A stretch of 64,000 nucleotides of DNA. Origin: a virus. How positions within the stretch are numbered: position 1 is the stretch's first letter; every line of letters begins with the position of its first letter. Both the position numbers and the translations under genes were made by a program. This document shows, one piece after another, positions 17,171 through 62,224 of the stretch. The notes beneath the pieces were generated by a model. That model was not told where the DNA came from, ran no database searches, and saw only the letters and a program-made list of their open reading frames with translations. The DNA lies in the IMG/VR virus record IMGVR_UViG_3300009430_000001, positions 32,598 to 96,597 of that record. One strand, 5' to 3'.

Positions 17171-17255
17171 TGCGAAATCAGCAGAACACATGAAAAAGGC
17201 CCCCGCGGAGGGGGCCATGGAGTCGGAGGGTTACTCTGCATCCAGGAGTTGAACA

Positions 17256-31904: not shown

Positions 31905-33251
31905 GTGGATTTCGTCTCTCAATTCTTCTATGAGCGTCAGCGACGGCGCACCGAGCGAGAGCGCGAGTGGAATCGGACGCACATGGTTCTCGGTGGCAAT
32001 CCGAACTACCTCGTGCCTCCGACCGTTGGCATGGCGCCGAGCCCGCAATTTTCGGGTCGCCCAGCTCCTGTGCCGCTCTGGGGTGACAACTGGGACTATG
32101 GCAGTCCGGTGGGGCGCGTCGGCTATATGACGGCGCCCGATGGCCCGGAGCGGATGCAGGAGCTCAGGGGGTATCCGGGTGCCCCTTCGTTCGGTCCCGA
32201 TGTGACCTCGATGGCGGCATCGGTGGCTCTGGATGCCGGGCTTCAGATGGCGCCGCAGCTGCTGCAGGCCCCAACTCCGCGGGCCAATGGTCCGGTGATG
32301 GTGCAGATCCCCCGACCGCGAAATCCCACCATCCTGCCCACGCCTCCTGGCCCTCGAGGGGGTGGGCAGCCGGTGGCTGTGGTTGGTCCCGCGCCGGGGG
32401 TGGAGCCTTCCGCGACGGCCCCAGGGAATGGGGGCGGGGTGACCACGGTGCCAGGGGCGCCTGGTGGGTCGGAGCCGAACGTCACGCAGATGGGCATCAA
32501 CGAGGCCCAGGCCGTTCGCAAGGCCGCTGCTCGGGGTCGATCGATCGAATCAATCAACGGCGCTCAGCTCTGGAATGGCATCGAGGAGCCGTCCGCGATG
32601 CCCGACGCCACGGCCGAAAGGGTGAGGCGGGCCCGGACCGGCGGTAGCAAGCCGCGCAGCGGGCCCGCCACCGGCTACGGGAAGCTCTACCAGGGGGCCG
32701 AGAGCTTCGATCTGCCGGAATGGATCGAGGGAGCTTCCCGGCGCGGGGCCGCCTACGTGCGCAAGACCGGTGGCGCCGCCGAGACTCGGGCGCTGCAGAA
32801 GAGCATGATCCGGGCCGGCAAGTGGGGCGCCACTGCAGCCCGAGTCGCTCCCTATGCCACCGGCGCCCTGGTCGCGATTGGCGCCGGCATGCAGGGCTCC
32901 CAGGAGGCGGGCCTGGCCGGTGGGCTCACTTCCGCGGCGACAAGCACGGCTGGTCAGGTTGGAGGGGCGGTGCTTGGTGGCACCATTGGCACGATGCTCG
33001 CTCCGTTCACTGCTGGCGCTTCGATTCCGATCGGCGCCACGATCGGCGGCATCGTTGGCGGCATGGGCGGGCAGTGGGTTGGCAGTCAGGCCAACAAGTT
33101 CACAGTCAGCCAGGTCGATCAAGGCACCGGCTTCGGGGCCATGATGGATCCGTTCGTGACGACAGAGCGCGAACGCATGCAGGCTGAAGTGCTGAGAGCG
33201 CTCAACAGTCCTGCGTACATTGCGTCGCGGCCACTCGAACCTTACATCTGA
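31905..33251 (+). CDS. Pro/Gly-rich putative virion protein with C-terminal glycine zipper
   Basis: GTG 31905 lies 27 nt after TACCCTG (31878); GGAVLGGTIG...GATIGGIVGG. Confidence 0.7.
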   Translation: MDFVSQFFYERQRRRTEREREWNRTHMVLGGNPNYLVPPTVGMAPSPQFSGRPAPVPLWGDNWDYGSPVGRVGYMTAPDGPERMQELRGYPGAPSFGPDVTSMAASVALDAGLQMAPQLLQAPTPRANGPVMVQIPRPRNPTILPTPPGPRGGGQPVAVVGPAPGVEPSATAPGNGGGVTTVPGAPGGSEPNVTQMGINEAQAVRKAAARGRSIESINGAQLWNGIEEPSAMPDATAERVRRARTGGSKPRSGPATGYGKLYQGAESFDLPEWIEGASRRGAAYVRKTGGAAETRALQKSMIRAGKWGATAARVAPYATGALVAIGAGMQGSQEAGLAGGLTSAATSTAGQVGGAVLGGTIGTMLAPFTAGASIPIGATIGGIVGGMGGQWVGSQANKFTVSQVDQGTGFGAMMDPFVTTERERMQAEVLRALNSPAYIASRPLEPYI

Positions 33252-42161: not shown

Positions 42162-42443
42162 GTGGTCGAGCGCTTTGCCGCCAGTCCTGAGGTCTACAGC
42201 GCTGTGCGGCGTCACCTGCAAAGTGACGGTGTTCCGCGTGAGGCCGCCAACCATCTCACATCCGAGATGGTCACGCACGGTGAAGACGTCGATTCATCGA
42301 TCGATCGCTTCCAGGAGCTGCATGCGCGCCTGCGGTCACAGGGCTTCGATGACGAGGCGGCGCAGGCTCTGGCCGTTGAGTCGATGGAGGGCCGCCAGCC
42401 CGAGCCGCGCGCCACGCTTCGCTACCAGATGACGGAGGCCTGA
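42162..42443 (+). CDS. small helical late protein
   Basis: GTG 28 nt after TACCCTG (42134); coupled to the lysozyme gene. Confidence 0.65.
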   Translation: MVERFAASPEVYSAVRRHLQSDGVPREAANHLTSEMVTHGEDVDSSIDRFQELHARLRSQGFDDEAAQALAVESMEGRQPEPRATLRYQMTEA

Positions 42444-43246
42444 TGGCGGACTTACTCGCGCGTTACCGGCAGCTCCTGCAGAACCCGAACGTTCGCCGGA
42501 CGCTGGACACGATCAGCTACGCGGAGGGCACCTCGGGCCCCGAGGGCTACCGCACGATGTTCGGTGGCGGCAAGTTCGACACTTCCGGCGGCTGGCGGCA
42601 CCCGGATCGAGTGGTGCACGGCGGCGGTTACAGCAGCGCCGCAGCCGGCAAGTATCAGTTCATGCCCGACACCTGGACCGGTGTCTCGCAACGTCTGGGC
42701 CTGAAGGACTTCAGCCCCGAAAGCCAGGATCTCGGCGCGCTGGCCAAGATCGAGGAGCGCGGCGTCAACCTCGAGGAGATCGCCAAGGGCGGCCTGAAGG
42801 CGGGCCACATCCACAAGCTGGCGCCGGAGTGGGCGTCATTGCCGACCGCCCAGGGCAAGAGCTACTACGGCCAGCCAGTGAAGGGGCTCGGTGAGCTCCA
42901 GAAGGTCTACGGCGGCCAGATCGGCGCCGGTGGTGGAGGCGGCAGCACTGCGAGCTCCGGTGGCGGCACGAGCAGCGGCAGCAGCAGCGGCACGAGCAGC
43001 AGCAGTAGCGGCGCGAGCGGTGGTGACGGCATCATCCAGCCGGAGCCGATCACGCCGCCCAAGCCGATCACGCCGGCCGCCATCCAGACGCCTGGTGCGA
43101 CGCTGATCAAGCCCGCCGCTTCGTTCGGCGTCGGGCCCAATGCCTGGGAGGGCGCGGGCGGCCAGGACGCCACGCCGTCGGGCAATCGCCTTGCCGGCTC
43201 GCGCTCGATCGTGCGCCAGCTGATGCAGATGCTCATGGGCGCCTGA
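42443..43246 (+). CDS. lambda-R-type (GH104) lysozyme/lytic transglycosylase with Ser/Gly linker and tail
   Basis: ISYAEGT..GY..MFGG..SAAAGKYQF..TW..DFSPESQD..EWASLP..YGQP. Confidence 0.9.
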   Translation: MADLLARYRQLLQNPNVRRTLDTISYAEGTSGPEGYRTMFGGGKFDTSGGWRHPDRVVHGGGYSSAAAGKYQFMPDTWTGVSQRLGLKDFSPESQDLGALAKIEERGVNLEEIAKGGLKAGHIHKLAPEWASLPTAQGKSYYGQPVKGLGELQKVYGGQIGAGGGGGSTASSGGGTSSGSSSGTSSSSSGASGGDGIIQPEPITPPKPITPAAIQTPGATLIKPAASFGVGPNAWEGAGGQDATPSGNRLAGSRSIVRQLMQMLMGA

Positions 43247-44078
43247 GTGGGATCGCCGGCGGCTCGAGCACCCGGGCCGTCCGTTCGCTGGCGATCAGCG
43301 GCGGCTCCTCCAGCCAGGCATCCGGATCTAGCTGGGGCACCACATGGCTCCGGCGCATCCGGCGCTCCTCCACCGGCGGCGGACCGGGCGGCGCGGTCCA
43401 GCCCGGGTCTTCATCGGTGATCCTCACCATCTCTTCGGTGTGGAACTGATCCCGCAAGCAGCGGGCCTGCGCCATCCACGTGTGGCTGATGGCGCGGATC
43501 AGCTTCGCCACGTCCTTTGGGCTGTAGCGGATCATTGGCCGTTCCTGGGCGCTGGGGCTGTGGCCGATGCGGCCGGTTGCTCCAGTGAGCGTGTAGATCC
43601 AGTCATGCACCAGCTGCGCGGATTCCCACGAGTAGCGATGCAGGTGCAGATGGCCGATCAATCCTCGTGATCGCTTCGACGGGAAGATGCGGCCGCGATC
43701 GGCCCACAGCGCACCGATGCCTTCAGCGCCGATCAATTCCAGCGCGCTGCTCGTGATTTGAAAGTTGCCCTCGGGGTACAGCAGCTTGTAGGCCGTCTCG
43801 AACCACTTGCTGCCCACGCGGATCCGCCAGTTCCCGGCTCCGGGCCTGGATTCTGGGTTGTAGCTGCCGACGAAGCTGGGCTCTGGCGCCTTCGGCATGA
43901 ACTGCTTCAGGCGCTTCCACTGGTAGAGCGCGTACTCCTCGTGCTCGAACGGGTGGTGGATGATCAGGCTGTAGGAGTTCCCGGGCCGGCCGAGCAGCCC
44001 ACGACCCAGGCAGTAGCCGATCACCAGGCGCGTCAGGGCCGCGGATTCTTCCCAGCTGAGCCTGGCAGGTGCGGGCAT
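43233..44078 (-). CDS. degenerate two-motif LAGLIDADG endonuclease-fold protein
   Basis: IGYCLGRG and ALWADRG align with the LLGDG and W.MDDG motifs of LAGLIDADG_2; also H...EY..Y, LYP.G...IT..L. Confidence 0.75.
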   Translation of the reverse strand: MPAPARLSWEESAALTRLVIGYCLGRGLLGRPGNSYSLIIHHPFEHEEYALYQWKRLKQFMPKAPEPSFVGSYNPESRPGAGNWRIRVGSKWFETAYKLLYPEGNFQITSSALELIGAEGIGALWADRGRIFPSKRSRGLIGHLHLHRYSWESAQLVHDWIYTLTGATGRIGHSPSAQERPMIRYSPKDVAKLIRAISHTWMAQARCLRDQFHTEEMVRITDEDPGWTAPPGPPPVEERRMRRSHVVPQLDPDAWLEEPPLIASERTARVLEPPAIPLRRP

Positions 44079-44101
44079 GGCTTGATGATGCTTTTTCCAA
44101 T

Positions 44102-44129
44102 CTTAGACACAATGGGGGTTCATACTCTG
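44102..44129 (+). promoter_or_regulatory. asymmetric motif copy 7 (variant) plus TACTCTG late box for the capsid operon
   Basis: CTTAGACACAATGGGG 44102-44117; TACTCTG 44123-44129. Confidence 0.65.
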
Positions 44130-44135
44130 ACCTCA

Positions 44136-44253
44136 GTTCCGCATGGAAGACCTGCACTTCGGTGCAGGGCACCTCGACAAGGGAAGCCGGTTTCGGCAGC
44201 AGACCCTCCGCAGCAATGCGCTGTCGGAGCTCGCGCTCTTGCGCAAGCGGAAC
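44136..44253 (+). ncRNA. structured 5' leader RNA of the capsid gene
   Basis: Closing stem GTTCCGC/GCGGAAC enclosing a cUUCGg hairpin, a GCAA tetraloop hairpin and further stems. Confidence 0.6.
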
Positions 44254-44280
44254 GTGTCGTTTACTCATGGAGGTCCACAC

Positions 44281-45946
44281 GTGTGGATTGATTCCGATAA
44301 ATGGATTGTCGCCCGCATCGGTAACGGTGCGGTGAAAACCGGGTGAATTCGGGGAAACCCAAACGTTAAGTCGTGGGCAATCCCGAGCCAAGCCAGCAAA
44401 GCGTTGCTGGAAGGTGTAGAGACTACGCGGTGGAAGACGCTTCTTCCGTAATACGCGATCAGCGCCCGGCATCCCACTGGGATGAAGATATAGTCCGTGC
44501 TGCGCGAAAGCGTAGAATTTCACGTTTCCAAAGATCCTGGGTGCGGAACTCTATCGTCCGCATCCCAGTTACATCTCCGAGCTCGCAATCGAGCCAGTTG
44601 TTGTACACGATTATTCCAGAATGCCGGGTCAAACGGTACAACTGGACCGGTACAATTACTGGGGGAATCCTGGAACGAAAGAGTCCAGAGAGCGTACTCC
44701 GGATCAAACAATCGGCACGGCTTCCGGCCGCAACATCACCAAGCAAAAGGTCTTGGTGACGTTGAAGGAATACTCGGGGCCTGCAGATCCGAACGATCCG
44801 TCACAGCCGAGCACGTTCAAAGTTTCAAGGCAAAACCTCATGACCGCGCAGCGATTGCTGCTCGACACGGGTAACCTGGGCGTGTTTCATCAGTCGATCG
44901 GCAGCCTCACGCTGCTCGATGACTACCGACGCTGGCGCGATCGCGTCTTTCTCAACGAATTGTACAAGTGCTACGCACGCGGCAAGGCGGATGAGGAGCG
45001 CGGTGGCTACTACTTCCCCGGCAAGCTGAGCGAAGCTGAGCTCGCCGCTCCTGGATACAACGTGTCCACCGCCGGAACGGCTGATTCGGCGAAGTTCTCC
45101 GTCAAGGAGGACCTGCTGACGGTCGTCACCGACATGCGTACCCGGAACGTGCCCACGTTCCAGGATGGGTACTACCGGTGCATCTGCGATCCGAACGCAA
45201 TGAAGCACCTCCGCCAGGACAGCGACTTTCGCGAGATCGCTCGCTACCCCGGCAACGGCATGATCAATCCGATGATGCCGATGATGCAGCCCAATGCCAT
45301 CAACTACCTCGGCAATGGGCCTGCTTACGGTCAAGCCGGCTTTGTCGCCGGTGCGCCGACCATGCCTGAACAACCACGGGCCCTCGCGGCGTGAGTCGCG
45401 TTGCAAACGGGGTGAATTGCTGGAACGCCTCCACCAATTGGCGAATCAGCAGCCAAGCCGGATCACAGTCCGGAAGGTTCAACGACTAGGTCCCGAGTGG
45501 CAACACGGTAATGGACCCACGAGTGCCCCGCTACTTGCTATGCTTTTATTCGCGAGTAGGTGAGATAGTCTGACCACGCCGGATGGGAAACGGCGTGAAC
45601 TGGAGGATAAAGAGCCTCCAGGGTAACACAGGTGAGTGGCTTCCTCTTCGAGGGCGTTCGCTGGTTCGAGTCCACCAACATCGCCTCGCACACCTACAAC
45701 GTGGCGATCCAGGGTGCCAAGGGTTTCACTGGCAATACCGCCAAACAGAACCCTGCCGCACTGATGATGTTTTTTGGACCACAAAGTATCGGGATCGGCA
45801 TCGGTGGCAATAACGCTCAAGTGGCCCTGAATTCAAATGACGATTTCTCAAGATTCGTGATTTTGATATGGCTACTCTACGCAGGTTGGGAGGTTTTGAA
45901 TATGGATTTTGTGACAATCGCTCACAGTTTCCTATACTCCATCTGA
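44281..45946 (+). CDS. major capsid protein, join(44281..44298,44525..45367,45635..45946), 390 aa spliced
   Basis: GGAGG RBS plus GTG; spliced read MWIDSD|FPKILGAELYRPHP...APTMP|SGFLFEGVRWFESTN is in frame; HK97-like P-domain elements (YRCICDP, GFLFEGVRW, MFFGPQSIG). Confidence 0.88.
44299..44524 (+). ncRNA. group I intron 1 (226 nt, no ORF)
   Basis: Exon ends in U with P1 CGAU/GUCG; P3 CCGGGTG/CGCCCGG; P7 GACTA(44421)/TAGTC(44491); AAGATATAGTCC; GNRA-capped P2 and P9; terminal G. Confidence 0.92.
45368..45634 (+). ncRNA. group I intron 2 (267 nt, no ORF)
   Basis: P1 GCCU/GGGC; P3 CGGGGTG/TGCCCCG; AATTGCTGGAA..AATCAGCAG; P7 GACTA(45484)/TAGTC(45566); terminal G; P10 CCAC/GTGG. Confidence 0.92.
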
Positions 45947-59045: not shown

Positions 59046-62000
59046 CCGCCACGCCGATCGCTGCTCCTCATCACGTCACGCCACTGGATCGGACACCGCT
59101 GCTCATCGCGCGCGGGCGCCGCGTCGATCTGGTCGCCTCGCTGTCCCTGTTCAACGAGGGTGAGCTCTGCTGGGCCGAAGACGAGGGGATCCTCTACATC
59201 GTCACGGCAGAGGCGGGCATCAAGGAGCTGCGCCAGGCCAGTGCCGGCGTGTTCATCGGCATTCAGCCGCCGGTCTACAAGGGGTTGAGCGCACCGAACA
59301 GCCCTGAAGTCGGCACGCTCTGGTTCGATTCTAACGGAGGGATCCTCAAGGTCTGGAACGGCCGTCAGTGGCTGACGATCGGCGACATGGCGCCAACGGT
59401 GGTGAGCCCGACGCGGCCCACCTCCCCGGCGCCGCACCAGTTCTGGGTGGACACCTCGAATGCCGCGCAGCCGCGGTTGTTCGTCTATGACGGCCATCAG
59501 TTCATCGAGATCAAGCCGCCGCTGGCCTCGGCGCACAACCACGGCCTGCTCGCCCAGGCCGACTGGGTGAAACTGCAGGGTCTGCAGAATGCCGCCACGC
59601 CGGACTGGAATGCAGGTCCGGGCGTGCCGGGCGAGATTCTCAACAAGCCGGTGATTCCGGCGCCCGTGCCGCTGGCGACCACCACCCGCCCCGGCATCGT
59701 GCAGCTGGCCACGGCGCAGGACCTGCAGGATCCGAACTGCGCGGATCGGGCCGTGGTGGCCAATCAGGTGCAGTGGCTGGCGGCAGCCCTGGCCTGGTGG
59801 AGATCGACCTGGCTGCCGAGCCGGATCGATTTCCTCGACAACCATCCCGGGATCTGGATGGGCCGCGATGATGCGCTGGAGACGCACGGGCCGATCGAGA
59901 TCTCTCTCGATGACGGGCCCTGGGGCACTGGGCCGAGCGCGGTCCACCTCAACACAAAGGTGGAGGGCCGCTGGGATCTCGATGCGGTGCTGGTCGCCAG
60001 CCACGGTGATCGACTGGCCGGCTGGATCCGCGGCCCGCTCGAGAACCTCCAGAAGGACTACGAGCTGACGCTCGATCGGCAGATCGATGTGCCGACGTTC
60101 CCGTCGGTGGTCGATGTGCCACTGGGCGGCTGGGCCGAAAGCGAGGCGGCCCCGCTCCTGGGCGGCAATGCGCCGTACTGGATCTGGGCACAGACGAATT
60201 CCGAGCGGGCCGAGGTGGCGGTCAACGGCGGCGAGTGGATCGTCCTGCCGAGCACCCCGGGCGGCCTGGTCGTGTTCCCCGGTGCACAGGTGCGCCTGCG
60301 GCAGCGGATGGGGGTTCACAGCGGCATGAGCGTGGCGACGGTGCTGTTCGCCGGCGACGGGGTCGTCAACGACGGCGGCACGTTCCAGGCCACCGCGGTG
60401 CGCGAGGCGCTGCCGGTGCTGGCGGATCTCGATGGCGTGCTGCTTGAGGAGGTCACCCCGGGCGGACCGCGGTTCACTGATCAGTCGTTCCGGGCGACGT
60501 TGAACTTCGAGGAGCGTGGCGTCCCCGAGCCAGTGGCCTGGCTGCGGGGCTGGGTGGAGGCCACGATCGATCGAACGCTGCGCACCGATGCGATCACGGC
60601 GATCACGCGTTCCACGGCAGGCCTGGGCCGGGAGTTCCGCTGCGCGATTCAGTGGAACGACGGCTCCAGGCCCGTGGGCAACCCGAATCAGAACTGGCCG
60701 TACATCGATTGCGACGATGATGACGGCGAGCTCGGCACACGCTGGGCGGATTACGATCCGAGTCGCTGCCAGCGCTGGTCGTCCTGGACGTTCCGTGGGT
60801 TCTCCTGCACGACGAACTGGCAGTATCCCTCCTCGCGGCTCGTCGTTCTGCTCGATGCGGAAGATGAGCAGGTGATCACGCTGGATGCAACGGGTTCGCC
60901 CTGGCGTGCAGGTGATGAGCATCATGAATACGATGTCAAGTTCTGGCGGTGGGACAGCGCTCAGCGCAAGTGGATCAAAGATGGCACCAGGCGCGGCAGG
61001 GACCTGCAGAACTACTTGCCCTACACCTTCAGCCAGCCGGCGCGGTATGTGGCGATCTCCGGCAAAGGCGGCTTCCCGCTGGCCTCGATCTGCACCTTAC
61101 GTCCGCGGCGCACTGTGCTGACCTTTGCCAGTGCGGAGGACCTGGCCTACTTCCGGGTTGGCGATCCGGTGCAGCAGGACGATGCGTCGCTGCAGCAGAC
61201 GGCGCATGTGATCGGCTGGAGCGGCGACAGGCTCAAGGACTGCGATCGGATTGGCGCTCTGCCGAGCAGCAGCCCCTATCCGAGCACGGGCCGGCTGCCG
61301 AGGGAGCTGGAGGATCTGCGCGGCCTGGCCTCGAAGCGCTCGATTCGTGTCGACTTCCGCGGCGCGCAGATCGGCGGCACGCTGGACATCGGCCTGGTCT
61401 GCTACGGGGAGGAGCGTCGCTACAGCTATGCGGTGATGACGCAGTACAAGGCGATCGTCCGGGATCGCACCGGCAAGCAGGTGGCCAGCCAGATCATCGA
61501 TCTGCGGCGCTTCCACGAGGACAGCGAGGATGCCGCCGCTGTGCAGTCAGCGCAGGTCCAGACGCCGGTGCGTGATGGCAGCCTGGAGCTCGTGCGGCTC
61601 TATGCCCGGCAGGTCTGCCCGGATGATCGCTGGGATCGCGATGACGAGGACGACGAGGTGACGCTCAAGCTGCTCTGGCTGGGCGGACGTTCCCTGCAGC
61701 CGACGGCGGTGGTCCAGGCGATCGATATGGCGGCTCGCACGATGACGATCGAGCAGGTCTGGGGGACGTTCGCGGTGGGCCGGCGGATCGTCGGCGATGC
61801 GCGGCGGATCGATGGCGTGCGGCGCTGGCTGCTGCTGGGCGAGGACGGCGAGGTGCTGGGGCTGCGGTCTGCGCCGAGCGACTTCCGCAAGCTGGCGTTC
61901 AGCAACGACAGCACGACGCTGCATTTCCCGGCGCTGCTCGATTCTGGCCATCCACCGGATGTTGATCTGCCGGCCGGTGCGCAGATCCAGGTGGAGGTGC

Positions 62001-62224
62001 GGGTCGAAAACCGCATCGGGGCGGACATCGCTGCTTCGAACTGGGTGCAGCCGGGCGGGCCGACGGCTGTCACCGAGGTGATGCTGCAGCAGTTCCGCTC
62101 GGCGCAGGCGGGCTATGCGGCCGGCGTGACGCAGCAACGACAGGCGGCTGTGGCGAAACTGCAGGGCCTGCAGCTCAGCGGCCTCGATCTCGAGGTGCTG
62201 CGCCTGATCCCGCACGACCACTGA
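59042..62224 (+). CDS. long tail fibre/receptor-binding protein
   Basis: 1060 aa; GTLWFD..LKVWNG.W, ATTTRPGIVQLAT fibre motif. Confidence 0.75.
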   Translation: MTATPIAAPHHVTPLDRTPLLIARGRRVDLVASLSLFNEGELCWAEDEGILYIVTAEAGIKELRQASAGVFIGIQPPVYKGLSAPNSPEVGTLWFDSNGGILKVWNGRQWLTIGDMAPTVVSPTRPTSPAPHQFWVDTSNAAQPRLFVYDGHQFIEIKPPLASAHNHGLLAQADWVKLQGLQNAATPDWNAGPGVPGEILNKPVIPAPVPLATTTRPGIVQLATAQDLQDPNCADRAVVANQVQWLAAALAWWRSTWLPSRIDFLDNHPGIWMGRDDALETHGPIEISLDDGPWGTGPSAVHLNTKVEGRWDLDAVLVASHGDRLAGWIRGPLENLQKDYELTLDRQIDVPTFPSVVDVPLGGWAESEAAPLLGGNAPYWIWAQTNSERAEVAVNGGEWIVLPSTPGGLVVFPGAQVRLRQRMGVHSGMSVATVLFAGDGVVNDGGTFQATAVREALPVLADLDGVLLEEVTPGGPRFTDQSFRATLNFEERGVPEPVAWLRGWVEATIDRTLRTDAITAITRSTAGLGREFRCAIQWNDGSRPVGNPNQNWPYIDCDDDDGELGTRWADYDPSRCQRWSSWTFRGFSCTTNWQYPSSRLVVLLDAEDEQVITLDATGSPWRAGDEHHEYDVKFWRWDSAQRKWIKDGTRRGRDLQNYLPYTFSQPARYVAISGKGGFPLASICTLRPRRTVLTFASAEDLAYFRVGDPVQQDDASLQQTAHVIGWSGDRLKDCDRIGALPSSSPYPSTGRLPRELEDLRGLASKRSIRVDFRGAQIGGTLDIGLVCYGEERRYSYAVMTQYKAIVRDRTGKQVASQIIDLRRFHEDSEDAAAVQSAQVQTPVRDGSLELVRLYARQVCPDDRWDRDDEDDEVTLKLLWLGGRSLQPTAVVQAIDMAARTMTIEQVWGTFAVGRRIVGDARRIDGVRRWLLLGEDGEVLGLRSAPSDFRKLAFSNDSTTLHFPALLDSGHPPDVDLPAGAQIQVEVRVENRIGADIAASNWVQPGGPTAVTEVMLQQFRSAQAGYAAGVTQQRQAAVAKLQGLQLSGLDLEVLRLIPHDH

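Follow-up and report, generated by a model that had tools for sequence, protein, structure and literature searches.

A LAGLIDADG-fold gene beside the capsid gene

The stretch of DNA analysed here (hereafter the window) comprises positions 32,598 to 96,597, the right-hand 64 kb, of IMG/VR record IMGVR_UViG_3300009430_000001, a viral record that is complete at 96.6 kb and has direct terminal repeats. It belongs to an S-EIV1-like cyanophage with a G+C content of 61%; Synechococcus phage S-EIV1 is the sole named relative of the window capsid protein (65% identity). Immediately upstream of the capsid gene lies an intact open reading frame (ORF) on the minus strand (43233..44078), whose 281 amino acid product, P0001, is predicted to adopt a LAGLIDADG_2 fold and has lost both catalytic acids. 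We refer to this gene, and to the protein family with arginine (or, at the first, lysine) at the former acid positions, as RR. The gene is divergent from the capsid gene and convergent with the upstream virion-module gene (42443..43246, plus strand), whose stop region is overlapped by the RR 3' end by 14 nt. Members of the RR protein cluster were also found in Cyanobium metagenome bins.

Modelling predicts an I-SceI-like LAGLIDADG_2 fold for the RR protein, that is, a monomeric two-domain protein carrying two motifs. The AlphaFold2 (AF2) model, for which 41 homologues served as input, has a mean predicted local distance difference test (pLDDT) score of 84, and its top Foldseek match is I-SceI (E 4.6e-9, probability 1.0); the best matches have template modelling scores of about 0.65 on the target. 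I-WcaI and I-DmoI are likewise matched with a probability of 1.0, and further matches are to WhiA chains, the bI3 maturase and I-AniI. At the sequence level, Pfam returned LAGLIDADG_2 (PF03161; E 2.5e-4) with 21.5 bits, just under the cut-off of 25, and nothing else up to E 10, neither the helix-turn-helix (HTH) nor the N-terminal domain of WhiA being found. Five close RR homologues carry precomputed PF03161 matches, and phmmer searches from RR reach canonical LAGLIDADG_2 members, for example P0074 (PF03161, E 1.8e-31). By fold and by borderline sequence score RR belongs to the LAGLIDADG_2 superfamily, and a preliminary description of the window, made without database searches, is borne out in having seen a LAGLIDADG-fold protein here. 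PDB sequence searches with P0001 and with the family profile gave no match, and it was by the fold search alone that solved structures could be related to the protein. No useful match came from PHROGs or NCBIfam, and PADLOC gave a weak, generic 'homing endonuclease' match only. Strong phmmer matches to very long proteins (P0052, P0060 and others) were rejected as spurious, being summed weak matches to MBG-domain repeats.

The two motifs are IGYCLGRG (residues 20-27; 43998..44021, minus strand) and ALWADRG (residues 123-129; 43692..43712, minus strand). When RR is aligned with canonical LAGLIDADG_2 proteins such as P0074, LGDG pairs with CLGRG and MDDG with ADRG. R26 (44001-44003) and R128 (43695-43697) thereby fall exactly on the catalytic Asp columns of motifs 1 and 2, and the retained D127 (43698-43700) is the first, non-catalytic Asp of the canonical MDDG. 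Across 41 homologues sharing 36-56% identity, motif 1 reads CLG[RK]G and LWADRG of motif 2 is invariant; Asp is kept at neither position. Where an active endonuclease has Asp or Glu as the penultimate residue of each motif, RR has Arg or Lys in the first and an invariant Arg in the second. Loss of the acidic metal ligands abolishes cleavage in LAGLIDADG enzymes (PMC3384342), and on its sequence the RR protein is predicted to be catalytically dead.

Selection on RR was estimated by the Nei-Gojobori method over the core (codons 9-215), using pairs with unsaturated synonymous divergence (dS 0.03-0.85). The ratio of nonsynonymous to synonymous divergence (dN/dS, or omega) was 0.04-0.3 in these pairs. 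The pair L018/L019, for instance, has a dN of 0.021 against a dS of 0.40, and omega was 0.15 for L007/L011 and 0.20 for L003/L006. The ORF is intact in more than 40 homologues of 40-56% identity, with 33 invariant positions. Because CLG[RK]G and LWADRG are kept throughout the family and dN/dS is this low, the disappearance of the acids appears to be a selected loss of catalysis and not decay. The preliminary description had read both Asp-to-Arg changes in this way and had suggested a domesticated protein; the fold, the conserved acid loss and the purifying selection all fit that proposal.

The common picture of homing endonucleases is one of selfish genes, which invade, degenerate and finally disappear. 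It is nevertheless extremely unlikely that RR is a decaying, functionless remnant of such a gene. The degeneration cycle of homing endonucleases classically begins with loss of the catalytic residues, but the many intact ORFs with their invariant positions, the low omega values, and the conservation of both the gene position and an added C-terminal tail speak against this explanation.

The segment of RR at 43410..44054 (minus strand) is defined by the AF2 secondary structure, by the Foldseek matches (I-SceI, I-DmoI, WhiA, bI3 maturase), and by charge and conservation. The core is basic, with an isoelectric point of 9.7, and R34, Q39, R85, R87, R130 and R148, which lie on or beside beta-strands, are invariant or nearly so. 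We infer that this is the pattern to be expected of a surface which still reads nucleic acid. The C-terminal tail (residues 224-281; 43236..43409, minus strand) has pLDDT values below 50 and is predicted to be disordered. It is Pro/Arg-rich across the family, with a loosely conserved pattern RRxP...PRP..PPLL.

The slot upstream of the capsid gene

Relatives of the RR protein were sought in IMG/VR by a pattern search, which yielded 29 loci. In all 29 the relative lies between a homologue of the virion gene at 42443-43246 and the capsid gene, on the opposite strand. The virion gene, for which Pfam gave no match, is by synteny the conserved left neighbour of this slot in RR-type relatives. Eighteen distinct loci are of the window's type and were used for the intron counts given below. 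All RR loci were retrieved by searching for the RR protein, and the fixation of RR within its clade, where every locus found carries it, is not independent of that search. Relatives of the capsid protein were sought in IMG/VR with an alignment as query, which returned at least 592, of which the best 80 were examined; a single-sequence capsid query gave near relatives only.

The content of the slot varies in the wider lineage. In S-EIV1 it is empty. Three loci without LAGLIDADG genes were inspected (L044, L049 and L063), and there the slot is occupied by two small ORFs on the minus strand, one of which in L044 (3509-3892, minus strand) was assigned NUMOD4 and HNH_3 domains by Pfam run on that locus; the second has no assigned function. 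In many other loci (L024-L029 and L045-L096; for example L059:2731-3910) the slot contains two tandem LAGLIDADG_2 genes, here termed A and B, which are divergent from the capsid gene. Endonuclease genes of different families take each other's place at this slot, which is a homing-endonuclease hotspot in S-EIV1-like cyanophages.

Gene A is the one nearest the capsid gene. Its product has both acids, in the motifs LLxDGSL and WAEG, and is presumably an active enzyme. Gene B, in which the motifs read CLG[K/V/T/N/R/A]G and LWxD[Q/R/K/H/S/N]G, has lost both. The two genes co-occur in 27 of 28 loci, the exception being cut by the contig end, and their median omega values are 0.04 (A) and 0.055 (B). 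If the longest ORF is taken for each, A and B seem to share about 100 nt. In a quick IQ-TREE maximum-likelihood run, RR was sister to B (SH-aLRT 93) and then joined A (84), all three falling inside LAGLIDADG_2. Judged from this topology and from the shared loss of the acids, RR appears to be a stand-alone relative of the acid-less partner of the A+B cassette that has gained a C-terminal extension, the tail being absent from the B-type proteins (190-210 aa).

This descent raises the question of whether B and RR act on active homing endonucleases. As partners or antagonists, they would occupy the target of A or of related enzymes and so protect their own genome, or would control the expression of A; RR would then be an 'orphan immunity' gene left after the loss of A. 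This explanation is a sharper form of the DNA-binding role preferred below, and we regard it as rather doubtful. The strict co-occurrence of A and B, both under strong purifying selection, the stand-alone occurrence of the sister of B, and the interchange of endonuclease genes at the hotspot are all in its favor; the literature searched gave no protective paralogue of a homing endonuclease.

Outside the phage records, a scan of the GTDB species genomes for RR relatives found none. An RR-type homologue, P0035, with the motifs CLGRG and LWADRG, is encoded on a 4,744,185-bp NCBI contig, and could be a prophage-like or a chromosomal copy.

The split capsid gene and its introns

The window capsid gene is on the plus strand and is interrupted by two group I introns, neither of which contains an ORF. 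Exon 1 (44281..44298) consists of the GTG start and five further codons (M-W-I-D-S-D), as indicated by intron-less capsid genes starting MWIDSDFPK, and is preceded by a GGAGG ribosome-binding site (44269-44273). Intron 1 (44299..44524; 226 nt) and intron 2 (45368..45634; 267 nt) match Rfam RF00028, for which the gathering cut-off is 50 bits, with 72.8 and 50.5 bits, respectively. The presence of two ORF-less introns, as first described from sequence inspection, was thus upheld. Their boundaries were set by comparison with an intron-less homologue; the exon preceding intron 1 ends in U and the intron itself ends in G. Exon 2 (44525..45367) codes for residues 7-287, and exon 3 (45635..45946) includes the stop codon. 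Splicing would give an ORF of 390 amino acids, with 80% identity and one gap relative to the intron-less capsid protein of L003. Rfam revealed no group I introns in the whole genome beyond these two.

The capsid gene of the S-EIV1-like lineage is a hotspot for group I introns. In addition to the window, such introns occur in the capsid genes of L011-L013, L017, L019, L023, L025 and L028, at no fewer than eight sites (after codons 4, 6, ~31, ~37, ~48, ~88, ~140 and 287) and with up to three per gene. The alignment search for capsid relatives keeps the best contiguous matches and is therefore biased against intron-bearing loci and toward intron-less genes, so that intron frequency with and without LAGLIDADG genes cannot be read from that sample. 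The capsid introns of L013 and L019 encode LAGLIDADG_2 ORFs on the sense strand with canonical LGDG and MDDG motifs, and these group with ordinary members of the family in the tree. In L017 (3822-4889, plus strand) and L023 (3188-4027, plus strand) we noted LAGLIDADG_3-type ORFs that are antisense to the capsid gene and lie in introns of ~1.1-1.2 kb. RR itself was considered as an antisense intron ORF and ruled out as such, since it lies upstream of both the ribosome-binding site and the start codon of the capsid gene and persists in intron-less relatives.

The preliminary description had offered, as one of two possible functions of RR, that of a trans-acting maturase for the two capsid introns. 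Under this proposal RR would bind these introns, or group I introns generally, and aid their folding, making capsid production dependent on RR. Such proteins do exist, and some LAGLIDADG maturases, such as bI3, lack nuclease activity (PMC3384342). The bI3 maturase and I-AniI are among the Foldseek matches of RR, the capsid gene is unusually intron-rich (6 of the 18 RR loci), and both complete RR-carrying genomes that were scanned have capsid introns. Against this stands the distribution of the two elements. The capsid gene is uninterrupted in 12 of the 18 distinct RR loci, where RR is kept at the same place, and sister lineage B is likewise kept beside intron-less capsid genes. Near-identical RR alleles are found beside both interrupted and uninterrupted capsid genes. 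Over 2 kb including the RR gene, L013 and L014 share about 98% identity (dN 0.002), but the former has three capsid introns and the latter none, and L017 and L018 (98.3% identity, dN 0.004) have two and none, respectively. Four further RR-carrying fragments, 18-33 kb long, gave no group I intron. A maturase generally acts on its own intron alone; the capsid introns are of differing kinds and are scattered over many sites, and RR, which is free-standing upstream of the capsid start and is not intron-encoded, has no assignable cognate intron. Both window introns, moreover, match the full Rfam core model, like small self-splicing phage introns. Because RR is kept beside intron-less capsid genes and near-identical pairs differ by their introns, a maturase maintained for the window introns does not fit, and we consider this function improbable in either form. 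From this distribution the function of RR appears to be independent of the two capsid introns.

The first capsid codons are conserved at the DNA level, and two different introns interrupt them at sites separated by 6 nt: codon 4 is followed by an intron in L017 and L019, codon 6 in the window. This would be expected if the stretch is an endonuclease target, and the sites lie 100-200 bp from the slot. Exon identity falls to 88-90% beside the insertions in the L013/L014 and L017/L018 comparisons, which looks like co-conversion from recent intron homing and is expected near an endonuclease target. Both observations favor the partner or antagonist explanation introduced above. Phages with RR still gain capsid introns, however, so that protection, if any, is not general.

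The proximity of RR to an intron also invites the explanation that RR still cuts or nicks DNA through a non-canonical active site, to which D127 and other residues might contribute, and that it is mobile and drives 'collaborative homing' of the adjacent ORF-less intron. D127 is invariant, RR lies about 220 bp from the intron, and the wider slot is polymorphic for presence and absence. The arrangement resembles the pairs of free-standing endonuclease and intron of T7-like phages and S-PM2. On the other hand, both metal ligands have been replaced by cationic residues, CLGRG of motif 1 is without any acidic residue, D127 is the non-catalytic Asp of MDDG, and established enzymology holds that ligand loss abolishes cleavage (PMC3384342). 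Within its own clade, among loci retrieved by searching for it, RR furthermore appears fixed and not sporadic, and it persists beside intron-less alleles that would be expected to be cut. We consider a residual nuclease very improbable.

Apart from its relation to RR, the capsid locus offers a clean natural system for the study of intron gain and loss, with at least eight sites and near-identical phages that differ only by introns. The window capsid leader (44130-44253) is ~85 nt longer than in relatives and looks like a phage-specific insertion. It folds as a multi-branch structure with GNRA-type loops (minimum free energy -67.9 kcal/mol), and the folding of 44130-44298 is only modestly better than that of shuffled sequences (z = -2.0). 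In the deposited S-EIV1 genome (KJ410740.1), the capsid homologue at 60784-62010 (L114:4908-6134) does not have a single-gene annotation: the region carries a hypothetical CDS on the minus strand and a short CDS on the plus strand, an indication that the major capsid gene of S-EIV1 is mis-annotated.

Possible role and target of the RR protein

Most likely, RR is a non-cutting DNA binder and not a splicing factor. More specifically, we think it somewhat probable that it is a non-cleaving, sequence-specific DNA-binding protein. RR would descend from a free-standing homing-endonuclease cassette in the slot upstream of the capsid gene. We infer that the protein binds nucleic acid through the basic beta-sheet saddle, where R34, Q39, R85, R87, R130 and R148 are conserved, with the guanidinium groups of the two motif arginines placed, in lieu of the catalytic metals, at the central phosphates. 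LAGLIDADG sites are usually about 20 bp in size, and RR would bind a specific site of about that length without cutting it. This target would most likely be close to its own gene, either the CTTACACAGGC block, which overlaps the late-promoter region of the capsid gene, or the first capsid codons. Binding may regulate transcription of RR or that of the capsid gene, much as the I-TevI promoter is repressed by its own product; alternatively, it may shield the site from the active endonucleases of co-infecting relatives.

The intergenic region between RR and the capsid gene is 115-200 nt long among the RR loci, and contains a conserved block, CTTAGACACAATGGGGGTTCATACTCTG in the window and CTTACACAGGCAnnAGGGTATnTACCTTC in relatives (44102..44129), that lies 24-51 nt from the RR start codon and is a candidate RR promoter or operator. 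It ends in the late-type TACTCTG box of the capsid gene (44123-44129). Each of 20 RR-type loci (duplicate records included) has a single copy of the 11-mer CTTACACAGGC, which always lies in the intergenic region, 12-25 nt from the RR start, and which is absent from all A+B and HNH loci. The block is thus tied to the RR gene, and could be a promoter or leader, an operator, or both.

Several points weigh against the proposed DNA-binding role. The target site named above is a guess, and the conserved intergenic block may simply be the promoter or leader of RR itself; a scan of 42900-44400 for sigma-70 promoter and terminator consensus sequences found none. The former catalytic positions vary in B, with six residues accepted at each (K/V/T/N/R/A and Q/R/K/H/S/N), so that Arg is not required across the wider lineage. 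Finally, the intron-free examples of RR loci are fragments of 18-33 kb or less, and the two complete genomes are those with capsid introns.

There are precedents for such a role. An autorepressor function is known for I-TevI (PMC3384342), and the DNA-binding domains of homing endonucleases gave rise to the capsid repressor CapR (PMC10055350); I-TevI and the CapR of PLE are thus endonuclease-derived repressors, one of them of a capsid gene. In contrast to these, RR keeps the whole endonuclease fold, has Arg in place of the active site, and originates in a cassette of acid-bearing and acid-less genes. The free-standing endonucleases of other phages (T4 Seg/Mob, F-CphI of S-PM2) resemble RR in occupying a variable slot beside a conserved essential gene (PMC10055350). 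With I-SceI and the LAGLIDADG_2 family (PF03161) RR shares the fold, the monomer with two motifs, detectable sequence similarity, the basic DNA-binding core, and the association with phage genes and group I introns. Unlike I-SceI-type enzymes, it has Arg or Lys in place of the catalytic Asp, is free-standing, is apparently fixed in its phage clade and possesses a disordered tail of ~60 amino acids. The bI3 maturase and I-AniI share the fold, and bI3 is also nuclease-dead, but RR differs from LAGLIDADG maturases in not being intron-encoded and in being present without introns.

The second function put forward in the preliminary description, that of a WhiA-like transcription factor, holds as an analogy and fails as a classification. 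In WhiA (DUF199), as presumably in RR, a LAGLIDADG fold without the acids has been put to use by the genome encoding it, to bind and not to cleave; the Thermotoga maritima protein, in which Arg and Gly occupy the acidic positions, does not cleave DNA (PMC3384342). RR, however, lacks both the WhiA HTH and the WhiA N-terminal domain, is a phage and not a cellular protein, and has an independent origin within LAGLIDADG_2. The surface of WhiA is partly acidic and its DNA binding has moved to the HTH domain (PMC3384342), whereas the RR core stays strongly basic with a conserved beta-sheet surface. RR is not a member of the WhiA family.

Inactive, repurposed LAGLIDADG proteins are already known. The literature searched contained no description of a symmetric Asp-to-Arg conversion under selection, of such a protein in a fixed position beside the capsid gene of a phage lineage, or of descent from a paired acid-bearing and acid-less cassette. 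In RR, a LAGLIDADG protein that is dead on the evidence of its motifs has been kept under strong selection through deep divergence (40-56% identity), at a constant place beside a key structural gene, in a cyanophage lineage that is widespread. The proteins most closely related to it are acid-less and obligately paired with endonucleases that bear the acids. Should RR bind DNA, it would parallel WhiA independently and in a phage, and would be a natural conversion of a meganuclease into a metal-free binder by Asp-to-Arg replacement, which would be of interest for protein engineering. A bolder proposal, which we hold only tentatively and consider unlikely, is that the acid-less B and RR together represent a new functional class of non-cutting paralogues that protect sites or control active endonucleases, with RR an orphan that shields or regulates the capsid 5' region and clamps DNA through its arginines. 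If the A+B pairing does serve to protect or to control, the coexistence of endonuclease genes and host genomes would gain a new level.

The late-type box with which the conserved block ends is one of many in the window. TACHCTG precedes many plus-strand late genes, with 19 copies against 6.8 expected; boxes on the plus strand were noted at 17232, 19021, 24218, 25624, 31878, 37495, 42134, 44123, 46895, 47865, 54470, 55556 and 62229. The other late boxes (TACCCTG) are without the upstream part of the block, and no further upstream element is conserved among them. TACHCTG is likely to be the late-promoter core of a phage-specific transcription system. In some relatives (L044, L049 and L063) a sigma-70-like protein is encoded near the capsid module.

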